The notes under the pieces were generated by a model that saw only the letters and a program-made list of their open reading frames with translations, was not told the DNA's origin and did not search any database. A DNA stretch of 64,000 bases, taken from assembly GCF_044647545.1 (NCBI RefSeq), contig NZ_CP172818.1; one strand, given 5' to 3'. Origin of the DNA: Escherichia coli (GTDB lineage: Bacteria; Pseudomonadota; Gammaproteobacteria; Enterobacterales; Enterobacteriaceae). Of the stretch, positions 8,960 through 61,569 are shown in pieces. The position numbers and the translations under genes were made by a program. Every line of letters starts with the position of its first letter. Within the stretch, counting starts at the first letter, position 1.

Positions 8960-10552
8960 GTGTTAGTTTCCAGTAACGTCACCATGCAGTTCGGCAGTAA
9001 GCCGTTGTTTGAAAACATTTCCGTCAAGTTTGGCGGCGGCAACCGTTACGGCCTGATTGGCGCGAACGGTAGTGGTAAATCCACCTTTATGAAGATCCTC
9101 GGCGGCGACTTAGAGCCGACGCTGGGTAACGTTTCCCTCGATCCCAACGAGCGCATTGGTAAGCTGCGTCAGGATCAGTTTGCCTTTGAAGAGTTCACTG
9201 TGCTGGATACGGTGATCATGGGGCATAAAGAATTATGGGAAGTGAAGCAGGAGCGCGACCGCATCTATGCTTTGCCGGAAATGAGTGAGGAAGACGGCTA
9301 TAAAGTGGCCGATCTGGAAGTGAAATACGGCGAAATGGACGGTTACTCTGCGGAAGCTCGCGCCGGTGAACTGTTGCTTGGCGTGGGAATTCCAGTGGAA
9401 CAGCACTACGGCCCGATGAGTGAAGTTGCTCCTGGCTGGAAGCTGCGTGTGCTGCTGGCGCAGGCGCTGTTTGCTGATCCGGACATTCTCCTGCTCGACG
9501 AACCGACCAACAACCTCGACATCGACACCATTCGTTGGCTGGAACAGGTGCTGAACGAGCGTGACAGCACCATGATCATCATCTCGCACGACCGTCACTT
9601 CCTTAACATGGTTTGTACCCACATGGCGGATCTGGATTACGGCGAGCTGCGCGTTTATCCGGGCAACTACGATGAGTACATGACGGCGGCGACCCAGGCG
9701 CGTGAACGTCTGCTGGCTGATAACGCCAAGAAGAAGGCGCAGATTGCTGAGCTGCAATCTTTCGTTAGCCGCTTTAGCGCCAACGCCTCGAAATCTCGCC
9801 AGGCAACTTCGCGCGCGCGCCAGATTGATAAAATCAAACTGGAAGAGGTGAAAGCCTCCAGCCGTCAGAACCCGTTCATCCGTTTTGAACAGGATAAGAA
9901 ACTGTTCCGTAACGCGCTGGAAGTGGAAGGTCTGACCAAAGGGTTTGATAACGGTCCGCTGTTTAAAAATCTCAACCTGCTGCTGGAAGTCGGTGAAAAA
10001 CTGGCGGTACTGGGTACCAACGGCGTCGGTAAATCAACGCTGTTGAAAACGCTGGTGGGCGATCTGCAACCGGACAGCGGCACCGTAAAATGGTCTGAAA
10101 ACGCGCGCATTGGTTACTATGCTCAGGACCACGAATATGAGTTTGAAAATGATCTGACCGTGTTCGAATGGATGAGCCAGTGGAAGCAGGAAGGCGATGA
10201 CGAGCAGGCGGTACGCAGCATTCTCGGTCGTTTGCTGTTCAGCCAGGACGACATTAAAAAGCCAGCTAAAGTGCTTTCCGGTGGGGAAAAAGGGCGGATG
10301 CTGTTTGGTAAGTTAATGATGCAGAAGCCGAACATTCTGATCATGGACGAACCGACCAACCACCTGGATATGGAATCTATTGAGTCGCTGAACATGGCGC
10401 TGGAACTGTATCAGGGCACGCTGATCTTTGTTTCACACGACCGTGAGTTCGTAAGCTCCCTGGCGACCCGTATTCTGGAAATCACCCCGGAACGCGTGAT
10501 CGACTTTAGCGGTAATTACGAAGATTATCTGCGTAGTAAAGGGATCGAGTAA
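8960..10552 (+). CDS. ybiT: ABC-F family ATPase (two ABC cassettes, no TM domain)
   Basis: 530-aa ORF with a GTG start and two Walker A motifs ([18 protein letters not shown]) plus signature motifs; matches YbiT. Confidence 0.95.
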
Positions 10553-10559
10553 CTGTTGA

Positions 10560-11202
10560 TCTCGTTTCCCAGATCCAGCAGCTGCTGAGGTTGTCATAAA
10601 ACAGGCCGAAGCTAAACGTCATTGCGGCGGGTGATGGCTAATGGAATGTGTTGTACAGCGGGTCAGTACTCACGGCGTTGTAGCCCATCGCGTCGAGGTT
10701 ACGCATCTCGTAACGTTTACCGTTGCGTTGCAGGTCGCCGGCTTTATCTCCGAGGCCATAAAAGCGTTCATCTTTACGACGGCTCTGATAGTGCGCCACA
10801 CCGTCACCGTGGGCATTCAGCAGATAAGCGCTGGTCGGTCGGTCATTCACTAACGGCAGCCATTTCGTCTTCGTTGTTACTATAGTGCCACTCCAGCCAC
10901 AGCGGCTGGTGAACGGTGGACCAGTGACTCGGTGGCGATAACCACGGCGTTGTTGTGCTGGTTCAGGTTCATGCGGGCAGGCCAGCCGCTGGACATTTTG
11001 CCGGCCGCGCCCTTCCCGATGGCACATCCTGCTGGAGCAATGCTCCAGGTGCGATCCAGCGCCAGCTCGCCTTTGCGTTTTAACAGCACGCGGAACAGAA
11101 TTCCAGCACGTACAGACGCAATACGCCCGCCATCGACCAGCAGTTCAACGTGGTGGGCAGACTGTTTGAGGTCCAGTTTTTCAGCGTTTCGACGTTGCAC
11201 AT
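10560..11202 (-). pseudogene. Remnant of a glycoside hydrolase family 31 gene (alpha-glucosidase/alpha-xylosidase-like): 5' portion only, frameshifted and truncated at the ybiT junction
   Basis: Minus-strand fragments carry GH31 N-terminal-region signatures (...LDLKQSAHHVELLVDGGRIASV...; ...ERFYGLGDKAGDLQRNGKRYEMRNLDAMGY...), spread over at least two frames, and only about 210 codons remain of a family that is normally about 700-800 aa. Confidence 0.55.
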
Positions 11203-11207
11203 CACTC

Positions 11208-12445
11208 TCAGGCGCGTTTTGCGCGACGTTCAGCAATAAAGGTGACCAGGAAGAAAGCGCCAATCAGGTCAAAGAAGCCCATGGCGATAAACAGGGCTTA
11301 AAGCCGATTTTGTCAGCAGTAACCCCGATAATCAGGGAGAAACAGGAAACTTGCTATCGACGCGGCAGAACCGCGCATGCCGTTACAGTGGCCATCTGAC
11401 CTTTGTCGAGGATTCCACTACTAATGCGCTAAGCATGCAGGAGATGATCTGGTCAACCGAAGCCGCCTATGGAAGATAAGGACGATGGCGATATGGGTTA
11501 TCCAGAAAGGCCATCACCGCCAGCGAAACCATCAGGAATGCGCCACTGACCGATCTATGCGCAATGGAGTTCACACTGACTCAGCCCAAACAGGCGGGTG
11601 TAAAGTTTGGTCAGATAGCCGCTGGCAATACTGCCAAGATCAGCGGCGAAGGAACGGCAACCAGGCGAAAGAGTGCGATCTGCTTCAGGTCGATGCCATA
11701 GGCATCTGGACAGGTATAGCGGAACCCAGAAACTCATCACCGCCCACGCCGGTTCTGCCATAAAGGCTGGGATAGTGATACCGTAAAAGCGTTTATTTTT
11801 GCCCACGGTTTTCAGTGCGGTCAGAAAGGGTAACTTGACCGGGGAGCTTCGTTATCCTGGCGGAGCAACCAGCTTGGCTTCGCTGAAGGTCAGGATGCTT
11901 ATCCGGGTTGCGATAAAACCCACCACAGCACCACCCACAGCATCGCCAGGATGCCAGTGGCATAAATGCGCCCTGCCAGCGAATGAAGCGTGGGCAAAAT
12001 AGATAATCGGTGGGGCCAGCATGGCACCGATGGAGTCTACGTCTGCCCAGCGGCGATCGGGCGTTGCGATTTTGGAAACCATTCACCTCATAGTTTTGGG
12101 GTTTGCCGGGGTGGCCGCGGCTTCCGCACCGCCCGATAAAGAAGCGCAACAGCGCCAGATGTACCCAGTTTCCCGCCCCCGCATGCATCAGACAGGCCAG
12201 CGCCCACAGCCCCTGTGCAGATCAGAAGCCCAGTTTGAGGCCAATGACGTCAATGAGCCACCGCATAACGGTTGAAATAGGGTATAGGCGAGTTGGAAAG
12301 CACCTACAATCCAGGAATATTGTTTTGTGCAATCCCCAGGCTGCTTTTCAACTCGGCGTACACCCAGCGAATTACGTGTGATGTAGTTGACAGTAACACC
12401 GAGCAAAAAAAGGACCAGCATCCACCAACGCAGATTTTTGAACAC
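11208..12445 (-). pseudogene. Decayed MFS transporter gene (N-terminus resembles ExuT/DgoT-type anion:cation symporters), multiple frameshifts
   Basis: ORF 12188..12445 begins MFKNLRWWMLVLFLLGVTVNYITRN (MFS N-terminal TM1 pattern); a C-terminal piece ...ALFIAMGFFDLIGAFFLVTFIAERRAKRA ends at a stop at 11210..11208; the body is broken into ORFs under 135 aa in different frames. Confidence 0.5.
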
Positions 12446-12769
12446 CGGCGTGGTTTACTGGCAGTCATATCAATCGATACCCACTGATATGCACTCCACA
12501 GAATGGTATAGGGGGGCGGCAACGTCAGACGGAGTTGTCACACCACTTTTAACCTTTTGATAAATAAAGTCTTTATTGTCTGTTTTTCCATTGTTCTTGT
12601 ACTGGAAGTTGTTGTCACATTTTTACAGTAAGAGACACTAAAAGCGAAAAAGAAAGCGGGTTTTGTGCACGTTTTTCCATGCGGCCCATACATTACTGAA
12701 ATGGATTTAATGCCAGACAGAATGGGCTTTTTTTGCTCATGAAAATTCTGTCATTTCCGAATTAGAGGA

Positions 12770-13800
12770 CATCAGAAATCGGCAAAGAGCTTAAATTGCC
12801 GATATCGCCGCACGTACCGGATTATCGCCGATACGGTTTCGCGGGTGCTGCTGGCAAAGCGAATACCAGTGCACGCGCTCGCGAACAGGCGCTGGCCTGC
12901 GCGTGAGTTGGGCGCGATGGATGGCATGGCAGCAGGTCATGTTGCTGAATACAACTCATCATTTTGCGCCGCAACGCGCGTTTGACCAACGATCTGATAT
13001 CTTTTATTACCTGGTGTGATCCAGCATCAGCAAAGCGTTATCGCCCGCATGAAGTGCGGCTGCGTTACTGCGTGTTAAGGTAGTTCTACAGCTGATCCCT
13101 GGCGTGATCTGGCGGCATGAATGAAGCAGATACGCAGGCGGCGATCCTGCTGGGGATCGACGATCCGCACATCCATGATCTGGCCGCCGATCGCTAAGCC
13201 TTGCGCTGATCGACTGCTGGTGATGAACGAATGCGCCTCCCGACGATTGCGCCGGACCATCGGTTAATCGGCGTGTCTGCCGCCCGCTATCTGTTTGAAA
13301 TGGGTCACCGGGAGGTGATGAACGTTATGTGCCTGCGCTCGGCCACACTATGGAGCAGCGGTTTGCAGGGATCAAAGAATCATGGCGTCAGCATAATCTG
13401 GCCTTTCACCATGACCGTCATTTGCTGAATATCAGCAGTTTTCTCAGCGCTAAAGAAGCGGAAGAAGGTCGGAGCGCGGCCTGATGCCGCCAATGGCAAT
13501 ACGTTGCCGACGGCGTTTCTGGTCGGCGGGGATTTTTATGGCGGCGGGAACGGTAAATGCGCTACATCGTCGTGGTCTGCGCGTACCACAGGATGTCTCG
13601 GTGATGAGTATCGATGGTCTTCAATCTTGCGGCAATCGAGGATGTTCCCGACGGCTGTGACGTGCCACGCGATCAGCTAAGGGTTAAGTGGTGCAAATGT
13701 TGCAACAGCGGCTGATTCGCCGGATGTCTGCGGTGGGCTCGCTGCTGCTGCACGGACGATTAGCGGTGCGGACGCGCGGCGGTTGCCCAGGAAAAGGGAA
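12770..13800 (+). pseudogene. Decayed LacI-family transcriptional regulator gene, multiple frameshifts
   Basis: HTH-like IADIAARTGLSP continues in another frame as DTVSRVLLAK...ARELG; the C-terminal region contains ...GLRVPQDVSVMSIDG..., typical of LacI/GalR effector domains, but split across frames with stops. Confidence 0.5.
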
Positions 13801-13833
13801 CACCGCCGTGGAACGGGAAGGGCTGTACGACAA

Positions 13834-15102
13834 TCATTCCATTCCCAGCGCTCGCTTACCGTGAATGTTGAGGTCGGCAAGCGTAAAGCGTCCTTCCCAG
13901 TTTGTTTCATAGTCCTCGCGCGGGAAGTCGCCCGGCGATGCGCCTTTTTCCAGTGCGGCCTTCACCTTGTGCGCGTAGGCAAGATTTTTCTCGCACATCG
14001 GTGCCGCAGGAATGTACATCACGTTGCCCCAACCCTGTTGATTTTCAACGGGGGCAACGGAATGGATGACGTCGCAGTGCCACCAGACGGAGTCTCCGGC
14101 TTCGAGTTGTGGAATGCTGGTTAATGCCTCAATCAACAGTGGATGCCATTGCTCTGATACCGGCAACACTCTTCCGGGCGCTACGCCGCACAGTTCATCC
14201 TCCGGCACATCATCAAGCAGCGGACGTAACAGCACGTACGCCATGGCTTCAGGAATGGGCACGACGTGCAGCAGTCCCTGACCAGGCAGCATATCAGAGA
14301 GCGCTGTCCAGCCCTGGAATGTCCGAAACACGGAACATTTGGTGGTGTTGTCCACCGTGTACTCTTCAACTTCTGTACGATGTGCCGCATGCCAGGGATC
14401 ATATTGCGCCAGATTGCCATTAAAGACGTTGGCGAAAACGCGCTGATACGCTGGAAGCAGCCAGCGTTCCAGTGCCCCGGAGTCGGTATGCGCTCCGAGA
14501 CCTTTGGAGGCCGTTCCGGGCGGACGGCGGCGGATACGGTCAGGGTAGATGACGCTCACATCCGGGTTAAACCATTGCTTTCCATCACTTTCAAATGTCC
14601 ACAGACGATTGAGAAACGACTGCGCATTCGCCATTTCTTCACTCTGGCGGGCCTGCATTTGCGCCTGCGACCAGTAGATGGGGTAAATCTCGGGACGTGA
14701 AGCGCTGAGCGTCCCGAAGAAATTATCGCCGGGGCCTTTGTAGACCTCATCAAAGCGGTTGCGGTCCAGATAGTCCAGCATCGACTGATCCCAGCCTAGC
14801 GCTTGTTCGCGGGGGAAATGGCCTTTTATCACCGCACAACCGCGACGTTTAATCTGTTCGCGTTGCTCTGCAGTAACATGACCTGCTTTGATATCGGCAT
14901 AAGACAGCACCGGCCAGACTGCATCGCCCTGTGCTTTGAGTGCGTTGATTTCAGCCACTCGCGTGGCAATGTCATCGCTTAGCTGATTAAAGATCTGCTG
15001 GACGTCGCCAAGCTGCGCCCGCAGCGCGTGCTTCATCTGACGGATAGCTGCTTTGTGATCGGCAGGCAATGTGTTGCTGGTAAAAGTAGAAGCCATAACC
15101 AC
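13834..15102 (-). CDS. ybiU: DUF1479 family protein
   Basis: 422-aa intact ORF matching YbiU; the true start may be a few codons inside (MASTFTS...). Confidence 0.9.
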   Translation of the reverse strand: MVMASTFTSNTLPADHKAAIRQMKHALRAQLGDVQQIFNQLSDDIATRVAEINALKAQGDAVWPVLSYADIKAGHVTAEQREQIKRRGCAVIKGHFPREQALGWDQSMLDYLDRNRFDEVYKGPGDNFFGTLSASRPEIYPIYWSQAQMQARQSEEMANAQSFLNRLWTFESDGKQWFNPDVSVIYPDRIRRRPPGTASKGLGAHTDSGALERWLLPAYQRVFANVFNGNLAQYDPWHAAHRTEVEEYTVDNTTKCSVFRTFQGWTALSDMLPGQGLLHVVPIPEAMAYVLLRPLLDDVPEDELCGVAPGRVLPVSEQWHPLLIEALTSIPQLEAGDSVWWHCDVIHSVAPVENQQGWGNVMYIPAAPMCEKNLAYAHKVKAALEKGASPGDFPREDYETNWEGRFTLADLNIHGKRALGME

Positions 15103-20339: not shown

Positions 20340-20491
20340 CCGGACGTTCTGCATCCTCATCAATTGCTGATAACGTTGTGGAGTGCACCAAGCTTCCGCG
20401 CCTGAAATTCGCCCGAACTAGGCAGATAAGGTTACGCCGATTGGGTCTGAGAAAATTATCTGCCGCGACTTATCAGGCCTGGGGCTGGCAG

Positions 20492-29089: not shown

Positions 29090-31438
29090 ATGCTGAGTTT
29101 ATACGAAAAGATAAAGATAAGGCTGATAATTTTATTTTTATTGGCAGCACTGTCATTTATTGGTCTTTTTTTCATCATTAACTATCAACTGGTATCGGAA
29201 CGCGCGGTAAAACGTGCCGATAGCCGCTTTGAACTTATTCAGAAAAACGTTGGCTATTTCTTTAAAGATATTGAACGTTCGGCCCTGACATTAAAGGACT
29301 CACTGTATTTATTAAAAAATACAGAGGAGATTCAACGCGCCGTAATTCTGAAAATGGAAATGATGCCATTTTTAGACTCGGTGGGACTGGTACTTGATGA
29401 TAATAAATATTATCTCTTTTCGCGGAGGGCGAATGATAAAATCGTTGTTTATCATCAGGAACAAGTAAATGGACCGCTTGTCGACGAGTCAGGGCGGGTT
29501 ATTTTTGCCGATTTTAACCCATCGAAACGACCGTGGTCGGTGGCTTCAGATGACTCTAACAACAGCTGGAATCCGGCATACAATTGCTTTGATCGTCCGG
29601 GTAAAAAATGTATCTCTTTTACGCTACACATCAACGGCAAAGATCACGATTTGTTAGCGGTGGATAAAATTCATGTCGATTTAAACTGGCGATATCTGAA
29701 CGAGTATCTTGATCAAATCAGCGCTAATGATGAAGTTCTATTTTTAAAGCAAGGTCATGAGATCATTGCTAAGAATCAACTCGCTCGTGAAAAATTGATT
29801 ATTTATAATAGCGAAGGTAATTATAATATTATTGATTCTGTCGATACGGAATATATTGAAAAAACATCAGCGGTGCCAAACAACGCATTATTCGAAATCT
29901 ATTTTTATTATCCTGGTGGTAATTTATTGAACGCATCAGATAAACTTTTTTATCTGCCGTTTGCTTTCATTATTATCGTATTGCTGGTGGTTTATTTAAT
30001 GACCACTCGAGTTTTCCGTCGGCAATTTTCTGAAATGACCGAACTGGTTAATACGCTGGCGTTTTTGCCTGACTCTACGGATCAAATCGAGGCCCTGAAG
30101 ATTCGTGAAGGCGATGCGAAAGAGATTATCAGTATCAAAAATTCGATCGCGGAAATGAAAGATGCTGAAATTGAACGGGCAAATAAATTGCTCTCGCTGA
30201 TCTCTTACGATCAGGAAAGCGGTTTTATTAAAAATATGGCGATTATTGAGTCCAACAATAATCAGTATCTGGCTGTGGGGATCATCAAACTGTGTGGTCT
30301 GGAAGCTGTGGAAGCGGTGTTTGGTGTTGATGAACGCAATAAAATCGTCAGGAAATTGTGTCAGCGAATTGCCGAGAAATATGCGCAATGCTGCGATATC
30401 GTGACATTTAATGCCGATCTCTATTTACTCCTGTGCCGGGAAAATGTACAGACGTTTACCCGTAAGATAGCGACGGTAAACGATTTTGACAGCAGTTTTG
30501 GCTACCGCAATCTGCGCATCCATAAGTCTGCTATTTGTGAACCTTTGCAGGGGGAAAACGCCTGGAGTTACGCAGAAAAGCTGAAACTGGCGATTTCCAG
30601 TATCCGCAACCATATGTTCTCAGAGTTTATTTTCTGTGATGATGCGAAACTCAACGAAATAGAAGAGAATATCTGGATTGCGCGTAATATTCGCCATGCA
30701 ATGGAAATTGGCGAACTATTCCTCGTCTATCAACCGATCGTTGATATTAACACCCGCGCCATTCTGGGCGCGGAGGCGTTGTGCCGTTGGGTGTCTGCGG
30801 AGCGGGGGATCATTTCACCGCTAAAGTTCATTACCATTGCTGAAGATATCGGGTTTATCAATGAGCTGGGTTATCAGATTATTAAAACCGCGATGGGTGA
30901 ATTCAGACATTTTAGTCAGCGTGCGGTCCTGAAGGACGGTTTCTTACTGCATATTAATGTTTCGCCCTGGCAGTTAAACGAACCACACTTTCATGAGCGT
31001 TTTACCACCATCATGGAAGAAAATGGCCTGAAGGCGAACAGCCTCTGTGTTGAGATCACTGAAACCGTGATTGAGCGAATTAATGAACATTTTTATCTCA
31101 ATATTGAACAACTGCGTAAACAAGGGGTACGGATATCGATTGATGACTTTGGCACCGGTTTGTCAAACCTGAAACGTTTTTATGAAATTAATCCAGATAG
31201 CATAAAAGTGGACTCACAATTTACCGGCGATATTTTCGGTACTGCGGGAAAAATTGTGCGCATTATTTTCGATCTGGCACGCTATAACCGGATCCCGGTG
31301 ATTGCGGAAGGCGTAGAGAGCGAAGACGTTGCGCGCGAATTAATCAAATTAGGATGTGTTCAGGCTCAGGGGTATCTGTACCAGAAACCCATGCCGTTCT
31401 CCGCCTGGGATAAAAGTGGAAAATTAGTAAAAGAGTAG
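29090..31438 (+). CDS. pdeI: Membrane-anchored c-di-GMP phosphodiesterase (EAL domain) with large periplasmic N-terminal region
   Basis: 782-aa ORF with an N-terminal TM segment and a C-terminal EAL domain (…[10 protein letters not shown]…, …[10 protein letters not shown]…); matches YliE/PdeI; locally AT-rich. Confidence 0.9.
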
Positions 31439-31445
31439 TTTACGT

Positions 31446-32774
31446 ATGTCCAGAATCAATAAGTTCGTACTTACAGTCAGTCTGCTGATTTTTATCATGA
31501 TTTCAGCAGTTGCCTGCGGGATCTACACTCAAATGGTAAAGGAACGGGTGTATGGCCTGAAACAGTCCGTTATTGATACTGCTTTTGCGGTGGCAAATAT
31601 TGCTGAATATCGGCGTAGTGTGGCAATTGATCTGATCAACACGCTAAATCCTACGGAGGAACAGCTGTTGGTTGGCTTACGCACAGCTTACGCCGACTCG
31701 CTTTCACCCTCTTATTTGTACGATGTCGGTCCTTATCTGATTTCCAGTGACGAATGTATTCAGGTAAAGGAGTTCGAGAAAAATTATTGTGCAGATATTA
31801 TGCAGGTTGTGAAGTATCGACATGTCAAAAATACAGGGTTTATCTCTTTTGATGGTAAAACCTTCGTCTATTACCTCTATCCGGTAACTCACAATCGTAG
31901 TCTGATATTTTTGCTTGGTCTGGAACGTTTTTCTTTACTGTCAAAATCGCTGGCGATGGATAGCGAGAACCTGATGTTCTCCCTGTTTAAGAACGGTAAA
32001 CCGGTGACCGGTGATGAATATAACGCTAAAAACGCCATCTTCACCGTTTCGGAAGCAATGGAGCACTTCTCCTATTTGCCGACCGGATTGTACGTATTTG
32101 CGTATAAAAAAGACGTTTATTTTCAGGTATGTACATTGATTATTTTCTTTGCCGCATTGGTGGCAGTGATATCGGGTGCCAGTTGCCTCTATCTGGTACG
32201 CAGAGTGATTAATCGTGGTATTGTGGAGAAAGAAGCCATTATTAATAACCATTTTGAACGCGTCCTGGATGGCGGGCTTTTCTTTTCGGCTGCCGATGTC
32301 AAAAAACTCTACAGTATGTATAACTCGGCATTCCTGGACGATCTGACCAAAGCAATGGGCAGAAAATCCTTTGATGAAGATTTAAAAGCCCTGCCGGAAA
32401 AAGGCGGCTATTTGTGCCTGTTTGACGTCGATAAATTCAAAAACATTAACGACACCTTCGGTCATTTGCTGGGCGATGAAGTGTTGATGAAAGTGGTGAA
32501 AATCCTTAAATCACAGATCCCGGTAGATAAAGGTAAAGTCTACCGCTTCGGCGGTGACGAATTTGCGGTGATTTATACTGGCGGCACGCTGGAAGAGTTG
32601 CTATCGATTCTAAAAGAAATCGTTCATTTCCAGGTGGGAAGCATTAATTTAAGTACCAGTATCGGTGTAGCGCATTCAAATGAATGTCCTACCGTCGAAC
32701 GCTTGAAAATGCTGGCGGATGAGCGGCTGTATAAGAGTAAGAAAAACGGCAGGGCACAGATTAGCTGGCAGTAA
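31446..32774 (+). CDS. dgcI: Membrane-anchored diguanylate cyclase (GGDEF domain)
   Basis: 442-aa ORF with a GGDEF active-site motif ([12 protein letters not shown]); matches YliF/DgcI. Confidence 0.9.
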
Positions 32775-32779
32775 TTAGA

Positions 32780-33700
32780 ATATTATACCCCTTAATCAAG
32801 GGTACTAATGAATTGGTAAATCATTTCAAACATTTTACTTTGCAAAAACTTCCGGCCCTTTTATTCCAATGTATTCAAAAAACGCAATGCCGGCCCCTTC
32901 TTTTTTTTTCTTTTCCTCCCCTTTTCTAAAACTTTTTTTTTTAAATTCCCTTTTGTTCCAAAACCGGGTGGATGCCCCGTCCGGCGGGCCTTTTTCTCTT
33001 CTCCCCCCTTTGTTTTTGTTTTGCTTATGGGCCGCACTCTCGGGTTTGTGACTTAAGGGGAAGGACAAACTTCCAAACAACAAACAGACCCACATTTCTT
33101 TCCTTTCTTTTCAATTTAATTTTTTTTTTTTTCTCCCAAAAAAAAAACAAATTCAAAAAAAATCTTTTTTTATTGCTAAAGGCCAGAAATGCATTTGCCA
33201 TTTTTTTGTAGGCCGCCAGTTCATCATCTTCGATTTCTTTGGTTCCTTTACTACTTAGACCACTCTTGGACCAACCATCATAAAAAAACACATGATTTGC
33301 TGATTTAAAAAAAATAATTTTTTTGCCTCCCCCTCTTTCTTTTTGAGGGGGAAATTTTTTTTAAGAACACCCCAACCTAAATCACCCTCCCATATGCCCT
33401 CCATCACTTCTCCAGCGCAAGCCATAAAAATTTTATATTAAAAACCAAGTTTTTTTTGTTTTGCGGAATCTTTCCCTTATACACACCCATACACCCATCT
33501 TTTGTTATTGTTTATATTATAAAAATTATTCTTTTTTAAAAAAAATTGAAAAAAAAAATTTATTTTGGAAAAAAAAAGGAGGGTTGCCCGAAGGTTTTTT
33601 TTTTTTTGATTTATGGGGGGGATTTTTGGGAAGGAAAGGAAAGGGGGGAGGGAAGGAGAGGAAGAAAAAAAAAAAATTAATTTAGATTTCTGCCTTAAGA
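32780..33700. other. Low-complexity, homopolymer-rich non-coding tract between convergent dgcI and rimO; origin unclear (possible assembly artefact or foreign/synthetic insert)
   Basis: Runs of at least 10 T, at least 10 A and 7 G, plus GA-rich and CT-rich blocks (e.g. ggaaggaaaggaaaggggggagggaaggagagg); only short Lys/Phe/Gly-rich ORFs; unlike the surrounding E. coli sequence. Confidence 0.6.
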
Positions 33701-33704
33701 TTAA

Positions 33705-35030
33705 TTAAACCCGGCTACCCCACAAATCGTACTCATCGGCGTGCTCGACTTTCACACGCAGGATATCACCCGGCTTAACGTTGGTTTCACCATTGAGATA
33801 AACCGCGCCGTCGATTTCCGGTGCATCTGCCATGCTGCGACCAATCGCACCTTCTTCGTCCACTTCGTCGATAATCACCAGAATTTCACGGCCCACTTTC
33901 TCTTGCAGGCGCTCGGCGGAAATCTGCTGCTGCAACTGCATGAAACGGTTCCAGCGTTCTTCTTTCACTTCTTCCGGAACCTGGTCAGGCAGGGCATTGG
34001 CGTCTGCACCTTCAACCGGGCTGTATTTAAAGCAGCCAACGCGATCCAGACGTGCTTCTTTCAGGAAGTCGAGTAGCATCTGGAAATCTTCTTCCGTCTC
34101 GCCAGGGAAACCGACAATAAAGGTTGAGCGTAGGGTCAGTTCCGGGCAGATTTCGCGCCACTGTTTGATGCGCGCCAGTTGGCGATCTACAGAACCCGGA
34201 CGCTTCATCAGTTTGAGAATGCGCGGGCTGGCGTGCTGCAACGGAATGTCCAGATACGGCAGGATTTTGCCTTCTGCCATCAGTGGGATGACGTCGTCCA
34301 CATGCGGATAAGGGTAAACGTAGTGCAGACGTGTCCAGATCCCCAGTTTCGATAACTGTTCGCACAGGCTGACCATGCTGGTTTTTACCGGCTCGCCGTT
34401 GTGGAAGCCAGTACGATGTTTAACATCAACGCCATAGGCGGAAGTATCCTGCGAGATCACCAGAATCTCTTTAACGCCCGCATCAACCAGACGTTTCGCT
34501 TCACTTAACACTTCGCCAATAGGACGGCTCACCAGGTCGCCGCGCATAGACGGAATAATGCAGAAGGTGCAGCGGTGATTACAGCCTTCAGAAATTTTCA
34601 GATAGGCATAATGACGCGGCGTCAGTTTCACGCCTTGTTCTGGCACCAGGCTCAGGAATGGGTTGTGTTTCGGTTTTGGCACGTAGTGATGAACGTGCTC
34701 CAGAACCTGCTCATAGCTATGAGGCCCGGTGATTTCCAGCACTTTCGGGTGGACTTCGCGGATCTGATCTTCTTTTGCCCCCAGACAACCGGTCACAATT
34801 ACCTTGCCGTTTTCATTCAACGCTTCACCAATGGCTTCCAGTGATTCTTGTACCGCGCTGTCAATAAAGCCGCAGGTGTTGACGATCACCATGTCCGCAT
34901 CGTCATAGCTCGGTACCACGTCATAACCTTCAGTGCGTAGTTCGGTGAGAATACGCTCTGAATCGACAAGGTTTTTCGGACAGCCAAGGGAAACAAAGCC
35001 GATTTTCGGCTGGGGAGTTACTTTGCTCAT
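33705..35030 (-). CDS. rimO: Ribosomal protein uS12 methylthiotransferase (radical SAM, MiaB family)
   Basis: 441-aa ORF with an N-terminal MTTase Cys triad and a radical SAM CxxxCxxC (CNHRCTFC); matches RimO (YliG). Confidence 0.95.
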
Positions 35031-60710: not shown

Positions 60711-61226
60711 TTAGCGATTCTCGATGGACTGACGGAGCGTACCCGCTGTGGCATGAACGCTACCGCCTAAGTAGCGCACATCGTCGATGACCCAACACTG
60801 GCCTTCCTGAATCATTAACACTTCATCCTGCCAGCCCTGGTCACCCTGTTTGAGATCCACGCGCAATGGAATGTTACGGGCATCACGATTAGGGATAGTC
60901 GATGCACTGGCAACGTGGGCGCTGTCTGGCAAGGTGGTTCGACTGGAGAACGGATCGCTGCTTAACAATTCACGATGACTATTATCGCGGCTGGCATCGC
61001 TAAGTAGGGTTGCCAGTTTGTCACTCAAATAGGGGCGCAGGGCGGTAATGTCATTGCTACGATGTTGAATGCGGTAGTCATAGAATTGTTGAGCCACGCT
61101 GTCAGGGCCACCCTGGACACAGGAACCGGTGCGGGGGCCGTTATCTTTATAAGCTGGCGTGACGGTGGTACAGGCACTCAGCAGCAGTGCACATGGAATA
61201 AGTAGAGATAGTGAACGGTAGCGCAT
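60711..61226 (-). CDS. ybjP: Putative lipoprotein YbjP
   Basis: ORF with a lipoprotein signal peptide and lipobox (LLSACT); the likely start is MRYRSLSLLIPCALLLSAC at 61226. Confidence 0.85.
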   Translation of the reverse strand: MRYRSLSLLIPCALLLSACTTVTPAYKDNGPRTGSCVQGGPDSVAQQFYDYRIQHRSNDITALRPYLSDKLATLLSDASRDNSHRELLSSDPFSSRTTLPDSAHVASASTIPNRDARNIPLRVDLKQGDQGWQDEVLMIQEGQCWVIDDVRYLGGSVHATAGTLRQSIENR

Positions 61227-61305
61227 AATCATTTCCTTATTAGCTTGTTCTGAAAAATGGCGTTATACGATAATAGATGATATCCTTTCAATACCATCTT
61301 AAAAG

Positions 61306-61569
61306 CACAAAACAATACTTTATATTATAATAATAAAAATATATACTAATAATTAAAAAAATTAACATATACAACACATAATAAAAAAAAATAATAATTT
61401 AATATAAAAAAATAATTAAAAATTCTAAAAAACTTTAAATAATTTTAATAACAATCAAAATTATTAAATATTAAATCAAAAAAAAAAATTTTTAAAATAA
61501 AAAAAAAACAAATAAAAAAAATAATAATAAAACTATTAAATTATAAAAAAAAACAAATAATATTAAAAA
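61306..61569. other. Extreme A/T tract with no G on the + strand for about 264 bp, between ybjP and ybjQ; origin unclear
   Basis: Composition read directly: from about 61306 to 61569 the + strand carries no G and only sparse C; A/T-only repeats such as aataat, attaaa and A8-10 runs. Confidence 0.6.

Follow-up and report, generated by a model that had tools for sequence, protein, structure and literature searches.

What occupies the 0.93 kb between the convergent genes dgcI and rimO in this stretch of the E. coli chromosome? The window (the whole stretch of DNA that was analysed, 64,000 nucleotides) carries the dgcI ORF at 31446-32774 on the plus strand and the rimO ORF at 33705-35030 on the minus strand, and a tract at 32775-33704 fills the gap between their stop codons. 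The original prediction described this tract as homopolymer-rich, and the ORF ends, run counts and base composition bear the description out. Of the 20 homopolymer runs in the window that reach 8 nt, 13 lie in the tract, as do 22 of the 111 that reach 6 nt. Any given base repeats the preceding one with a probability of 0.51 inside the tract vs 0.27 in the rest of the window, the GC content goes down to 0.27-0.39, and strand skews are strong. The composition is not uniform: positions 33170-33312 are ordinary high-complexity sequence.

We find that the tract is very probably a reference-anchored consensus artefact lying over a known kind of toxin-antitoxin (TA) module, and neither a real feature nor new biology. 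The leading idea of the original prediction, that the tract is no gene but degraded sequence or an assembly artefact, was right. Its account of what lies underneath and of what surrounds the tract needs to be revised, as described below.

A toxin-antitoxin islet beneath the tract

Aligning the dgcI-rimO interval to complete E. coli genomes was a check proposed at the outset, and it yielded a match at the same site. In a BLASTN search of 5426 complete E. coli genomes, the tract aligned over 100% of its length, with 75.8% identity (E=6e-168), to an islet of 996-998 bp that lies between dgcI and rimO in ~1130 of these genomes (~21%). Any match to the tract was found in only 1138 of the 5426, usually at one place in each. 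The central clean block as a sequence repeated elsewhere or present in K-12 was considered and rejected: the matches are mostly single-site, and the alignment of the window to K-12 ends at the islet edges.

The K-12 MG1655 locus has the same convergent flanking genes, and the last ~15 nt before rimO (…ATTAATTAAACCC) are shared. In K-12, however, only a 44-nt spacer with a GC-rich hairpin separates the two genes, and it is this spacer that the 1-kb islet replaces in about a fifth of the complete genomes. The expectation that the gap should be a short terminator region is thus sound for K-12 (44-46 nt spacer) but does not hold for the genomes with the islet. Similarly, the suggestion of contamination, vector, eukaryotic DNA or synthetic filler is contradicted by collinearity with an E. 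coli islet at the same locus, and that of a misassembled contig join by flanks that are normal in order and orientation. The idea of a highly degenerate foreign insert survives in part, in that a genuine accessory islet lies underneath, but its degeneracy appears to be computational and not biological.

Clean copies of the islet, for example those in FDAARGOS_497 and CLSC36 (NZ_CP041300.1, positions 3321436-3322435, on the opposite strand to the window), contain two overlapping genes on the minus strand, a toxin followed by an antitoxin. They overlap by 11 nt on the same strand; in the coordinates of the FDAARGOS_497 locus, the toxin lies at 1887-2273 and the antitoxin at 1568-1897. The toxin, WP_000539521.1, is 128 aa long and annotated as RelE/ParE-family. 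It matches Pfam PF06296 'RelE' over model positions 1-120 of 120 (E=7.9e-33), whereas no NCBIfam model matches it, and phmmer finds no PDB homologue at E<=0.01. The antitoxin, WP_001280945.1, is a helix-turn-helix protein of 109 aa (HTH_3 at 3.4e-9). It is similar, below cut-off, to the MqsA (C-terminal) and NadS families, with scores that beat those of any HigA model, also below cut-off, and it weakly matches V. cholerae HigA-2 (5jaa_A, E=5.7e-4).

The PF06296 family is equated with HigB-2-type toxins, which cleave mRNA in a ribosome-dependent manner and are encoded ahead of their antitoxins (PMC11980606). By family membership, the toxin of the islet would be expected to act by ribosome-dependent mRNA cleavage and to inhibit growth, and its antitoxin to neutralise it. 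The true islet resembles type II TA modules of the HigB2/HigA2 type (V. cholerae HigB-2/HigA-2, PDB 5JAA) in having a PF06296 toxin, an adjacent HTH antitoxin and the toxin-first order of PMC11980606. The underlying element is an ordinary member of this known PF06296/HigB2-type kind of type II TA module, common at the dgcI-rimO site in E. coli. The copy in the window differs from such modules in that both frames are broken, and as written it is not a functional member of the family; the full-length PF06296 domain of the true islet protein is absent from it because of stops and frameshifts. Nevertheless, the tract is not devoid of recognisable gene content, as had been thought. Its 143-nt clean block is identical to the real toxin gene, and tblastn recovers both the toxin (E=2e-32, minus strand) and the antitoxin (E=2e-4).

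The features of the corrupted copy are as follows, with positions in the window and, where given, in the true islet sequence (true).

32775-33704, no strand assigned: whole garbled copy of the 996-bp dgcI-rimO islet, ~930 nt with a net loss of ~70 nt (collinear alignment)
32778-33169, no strand assigned: predicted insertion block 1 relative to the K-12 spacer, true 31-471 (two-piece-gap alignment); 90% identity to 32889 (first ~110-125 nt), then 50%
32785-32809, no strand assigned: damaged hairpin just downstream of dgcI, true GTACCCCTTAATCAAGGGGTAC (alignment, coordinate mapping)
32835-33131, minus strand: remnant of the HTH antitoxin, true WP_001280945.1 (coordinates mapped from FDAARGOS_497; tblastn fragments), frame destroyed
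33121-33490, minus strand: remnant of the RelE-family toxin, true WP_000539521.1 (coordinates mapped from FDAARGOS_497; tblastn), with stops and frameshifts outside the perfect block
33170-33312, minus strand: block of 143 nt identical to the true sequence, middle of the toxin (exact match); its first 30 nt (33170-33199) are the K-12 spacer anchor, true 472-501
33200-33686, no strand assigned: predicted insertion block 2, true 502-1010; perfect to 33312, 76% identity to 33490, 61% up to the right junction

Judging by its sequence, the islet hairpin GTACCCCTTAATCAAGGGGTAC may be a shared terminator.

Relative to the true islet, the tract has 226 substitutions, 75 deleted bases and 5 inserted bases, and G and C are depleted. 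In 221 of the 226 substitutions, the new base can be found no more than 2 nt away in the true sequence, as compared with 162 expected if the wrong base were random. Substitutions copy their neighbours, deletions far outnumber insertions, and G and C are lost; these are the marks of a blurred true sequence, not of a mutational spectrum. The blur is graded along the islet. Identity to the true sequence is 90% at true 26-150, 50% at 151-471, 100% at 472-614, 76% at 615-800 and 61% at 801-1010. Accuracy thus falls from the left end of each predicted insertion, the second of which starts at true 502, inside the perfect block.

Damage elsewhere in the window and in a second assembly

The original prediction also held that the tract was unlike anything else in the window. 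This proved incorrect: an A/T tract at ~61300-61565 is more extreme, and ~10554-13840 and 20387-20460 are corrupted as well. A base-by-base comparison with CLSC36 puts the damage into perspective. The 24.5 kb of the window beside the tract is ~100% identical to CLSC36 and to several other genomes, all of which have an intact islet. Over the whole comparison there are 562 differences, of which 241 fall in the tract, ~310 in three other short regions and ~11 in the remaining ~59 kb. Exactly four segments of the CLSC36 type are absent from K-12 MG1655, and the same four are the corrupted places in the window.

10575-13837: GH31/MFS/LacI island of 5235 bp; 3263 nt remain
20387-20460: element of 99 bp between fsa and moeB; 74 nt remain
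32776-33699: TA islet of 996 bp; garbled
61294-61564: AT-rich ybjP-ybjQ insert of 2548 bp; 271 nt remain, GC 0.077

Low GC was rejected as a sufficient cause of the damage, as the four true segments have GC contents of 0.54, 0.62, 0.42 and 0.33.

The four segments are not damaged in the same manner. The island with GH31, MFS transporter and LacI genes lies between ybiT and ybiU (~10549-13840 in the window) and has lost its first ~1.9 kb. Its remaining 3.3 kb carries 145 substitutions, 96 deleted bases and 37 inserted bases (4.4%, 2.9% and 1.1%, ~8.5% in total), evenly spread, and shows no homopolymer smear and no neighbour-copying (88 of 145 substitutions vs 96.7 expected). The fsa-moeB element, which is GC-rich, is reduced by many small deletions. 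Between ybjP and ybjQ, positions 61248-61565 form a second low-complexity tract of ~318 nt that is nearly pure A/T; the corresponding 2548-bp insert of CLSC36 contains a pentapeptide-repeat pseudogene.

Segments found only in K-12 (152 and 71 bp) behave differently from those found only in CLSC36. They are cleanly missing from the window, one of them with a single 1-nt slip at the junction. In addition, positions 61249-61293 of the window are a piece of the K-12-type ybjP-ybjQ spacer, which CLSC36 lacks. Among the complete genomes searched, none has this K-12-type piece joined to the ybjP allele of the window. Clean deletions, dirty insertions and surviving reference bases are found together, as would be expected of a consensus built in the coordinates of a K-12-like reference.

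A second assembly shows the same damage at the islet. E. coli BS-01 (NZ_CP172816.1, a RefSeq complete genome with a small chromosome of 4.49 Mb) belongs to another lineage and, apart from the islet, follows K-12 collinearly throughout the 72 kb that were examined. Its islet damage profile correlates with that of the window (r=0.86, 50-nt bins), its perfect block starts at the same base (true 472), and the same change from A6-G-A to A8 occurs at the block end. Where both are substituted, the two assemblies agree on the wrong base in 103 of 126 columns of a three-way MAFFT alignment and in 95 of 124 columns of a four-way one, although such alignments of low-complexity sequence can inflate these counts. 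The damage being shared by BS-01 and the window, the process must be deterministic given the true sequence and the reference. BS-01 looks like another K-12-anchored consensus assembly; a literature search on this isolate and its sequencing method returned nothing relevant. PGAP calls a 'RelE/ParE family toxin' on the garbled islet of BS-01, and pdeI and ybiU are pseudogenised in this genome.

Alignment and consensus as the probable source of the pattern

Based on these observations, the following course of events is proposed. The sequenced strain would be of a CLSC36-like lineage, with a real and intact islet of ~996 bp between dgcI and rimO. Its record would not have been freely assembled; instead, noisy long reads would have been piled up in the coordinates of a K-12-like reference without the islet. 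Both the read type (long and error-prone) and the use of a particular consensus software or pipeline are presumed here. Sequence common to the strain and the reference would yield a near-perfect consensus with the strain's own SNPs, and the islet would be represented as insertions. An aligner that set the 44-nt reference spacer on a chance look-alike in the toxin gene would split the islet into two insertions. Within each insertion, the inserted bases would then be stacked into columns starting at its left end, with no mutual alignment, and small indels in the reads would cause a register drift that rises with distance from the left end. The call in each column would be correct for ~110-140 nt and would beyond that give the locally commonest base. 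Such calls would create T, A, G and C runs, lose minority bases and cause net shortening.

The placement of the insertions is a prediction that can be compared with the damage base by base. The true islet with its flanks was aligned to the K-12 locus by a global aligner with the default two-piece gap costs of minimap2 (match 2, mismatch 4, gap 4+2k or 24+k). In the optimum alignment, the islet is not one insertion but two, at true 31-471 (~441 nt) and 502-1010 (~509 nt), plus a 2-nt 'AG' after CAGT. The K-12 spacer anchors inside the toxin gene, K-12 TTATTCGC-AGGCCGGACAAATGATTTTGCC being placed against true TTATTGCTAAAGGCCAGAAATGCATTTGCC. The prediction is matched to the base: true 472 (window 33170) is the first position of the perfect block in both assemblies, the right flank is clean again from true 1011 (window 33690) onwards, and neither assembly has the 'AG' that was predicted to be lost after CAGT.

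How specific this placement is can be seen from controls. None of 25 shuffled spacers put through the same alignment anchors at true 472; they anchor elsewhere or nowhere. The K-12 spacer has ~24 matching positions with a 30-nt stretch in the toxin gene (FDAARGOS_497 locus ~1945-1974). Taken alone, the similarity of spacer to islet lacks statistical significance, as 31 of 500 shuffles score as high, and we therefore do not claim that the K-12 spacer is a deletion relic of the islet. The weight of the likeness lies in where the alignment gets placed. Other gap schemes gave other placements. Simple affine costs with cheap gap extension shredded the K-12 spacer into many anchors and collapsed the consensus, and affine costs of -25 for opening and -1 for extension anchored the spacer elsewhere, at ~true 635-720. 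Among the schemes tried, only the minimap2-style two-piece costs gave the observed split.

The consensus step was simulated as a left-justified, per-column majority vote over 35 reads with 0.5% substitution, 0.8% deletion and 0.4% insertion. The simulated consensus is 0.773 identical to the truth, vs 0.777 for the window. Its 50-nt identity profile, perfect central block included, correlates with that of the window (r=0.84) and with that of BS-01 (r=0.81). Self-transition is 0.58 in the simulation, 0.49 in the window by this measure, 0.52 in BS-01 and 0.31 in the truth. The wrong bases agree as well: the window has the same wrong base as the simulation in 111 of 155 co-substituted columns, and BS-01 in 105 of 132 (72-80%).

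At 2% substitution, 3% deletion and 1.5% insertion (6.5%), the simulated consensus collapsed to 262 nt. Since the naive consensus collapses at higher error, plain majority voting is not the whole story, and the real tool is more elaborate. The 8.5% error of the GH31 remnant also exceeds the ~1.7% per-base rate of the best-fitting simulation. The simple model explains the islet well, but not in detail the GH31 island or the 2.5-kb insert that became ~270 nt of A/T junk.

The window nevertheless resembles known artefacts of reference-guided (mapping-based) consensus in several respects. Shared sequence is accurate and carries the SNPs of the sample, deletions are clean, and insertions are garbled or truncated. 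Unsupported reference bases survive, and insertion edges follow the gap placement of the aligner. Two of the four damaged segments deviate from the simple model of such artefacts. A literature search found no paper on the exact homopolymer-smear signature, only general papers on nanopore assembly and polishing.

Competing readings and what the tract means

A reading that keeps an artefact but dispenses with the reference is a de novo long-read assembly with a locally poor consensus, caused by low coverage, bad reads or failed polishing. The segment at 10554-13840 does resemble a single raw long read, with its 8.5% of errors evenly spread and no smear, and the isolated T6-to-T5 slip at 1831 is typical of long-read consensus. 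What such an assembly leaves unexplained is why the damage falls on all four of the segments that K-12 lacks and on no others, why the block edges fall to the base where the alignment of the K-12 spacer predicts them, why a K-12-type spacer survives at 61249-61293, and why BS-01 has the same boundaries and the same wrong bases. We regard it as improbable. A systematic failure of base calling on islet DNA, due to a local modification or to a structure that disturbs nanopore translocation and reproducible between strains, would account for errors that are deterministic and common to two independent assemblies. Motifs for modification, however, would act genome-wide and not solely in segments that K-12 lacks, and a computational model with no effect at the signal level already suffices to reproduce the wrong bases as well as the profile. 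The islet is clean in over 1100 other genomes, many of them sequenced by nanopore, and such a failure seems even less probable than a poor de novo consensus.

Readings in which the tract is real DNA fare worse still. The islet could have decayed or hypermutated in vivo to low-complexity sequence; the tract does have a real islet as its homologue, and the genes in it could not function as written. This would require a divergence of 22-24% within 0.93 kb vs ~0.02% in the flanking 59 kb, with 98% of substitutions copying a neighbouring base, a 143-nt block left untouched with edges set by a K-12 sequence that the strain does not have, and identical 'mutations' in an unrelated lineage, BS-01. No known mutational process gives such a pattern, and decay in vivo is highly implausible as a source of the tract. 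An as yet unknown, local hypermutation that copies neighbouring bases in vivo, arising independently in the lineages of the window strain and of BS-01, is likewise something to which we give almost no credence. Foreign contamination, a vector, eukaryotic low-complexity DNA, synthetic filler or a chimeric contig join would be suggested by the composition alone, which resembles eukaryotic low-complexity sequence. Origins of this kind are excluded: the tract is homologous and collinear over its full length to the E. coli islet of this very site, the order and strand of the toxin and antitoxin remnants are correct, and the flanks keep their native order. A consensus built on a K-12-like reference thus stays the preferred reading, and the strain almost certainly carries an ordinary and intact HigB2-type TA islet.

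The tract itself has no biological weight, and its practical value is that of a warning. A K-12-like backbone evidently underlies the record of the window and that of at least one 'complete genome' in RefSeq, BS-01. The core of such records looks perfect, but their accessory genome is garbled, truncated or absent, which would distort analyses of gene content, pangenomes, TA and defence systems, and pseudogenes. Reference-anchored 'complete genomes' with garbled accessory regions thus exist in public collections, and the signature seen here could reveal them: a homopolymer smear limited to segments that the reference lacks, accuracy that falls from left to right inside each insertion, and spacers left over from the reference.

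A few small differences outside the damaged segments were also noted. The window reads T5 at position 1831, as against T6 in both CLSC36 and K-12, probably an error in the window. At position 29864, by contrast, the window has A6 and an intact pdeI vs A5 and an annotated frameshift in CLSC36, where the error is probably that of CLSC36. The 5' end of ybjP (60711-61232), which encodes the signal-peptide region, is a divergent allele in common with CLSC36 and ~85% identical to the K-12 type; the ybjP ORF of the window is 173 aa long vs an annotated 171 aa.
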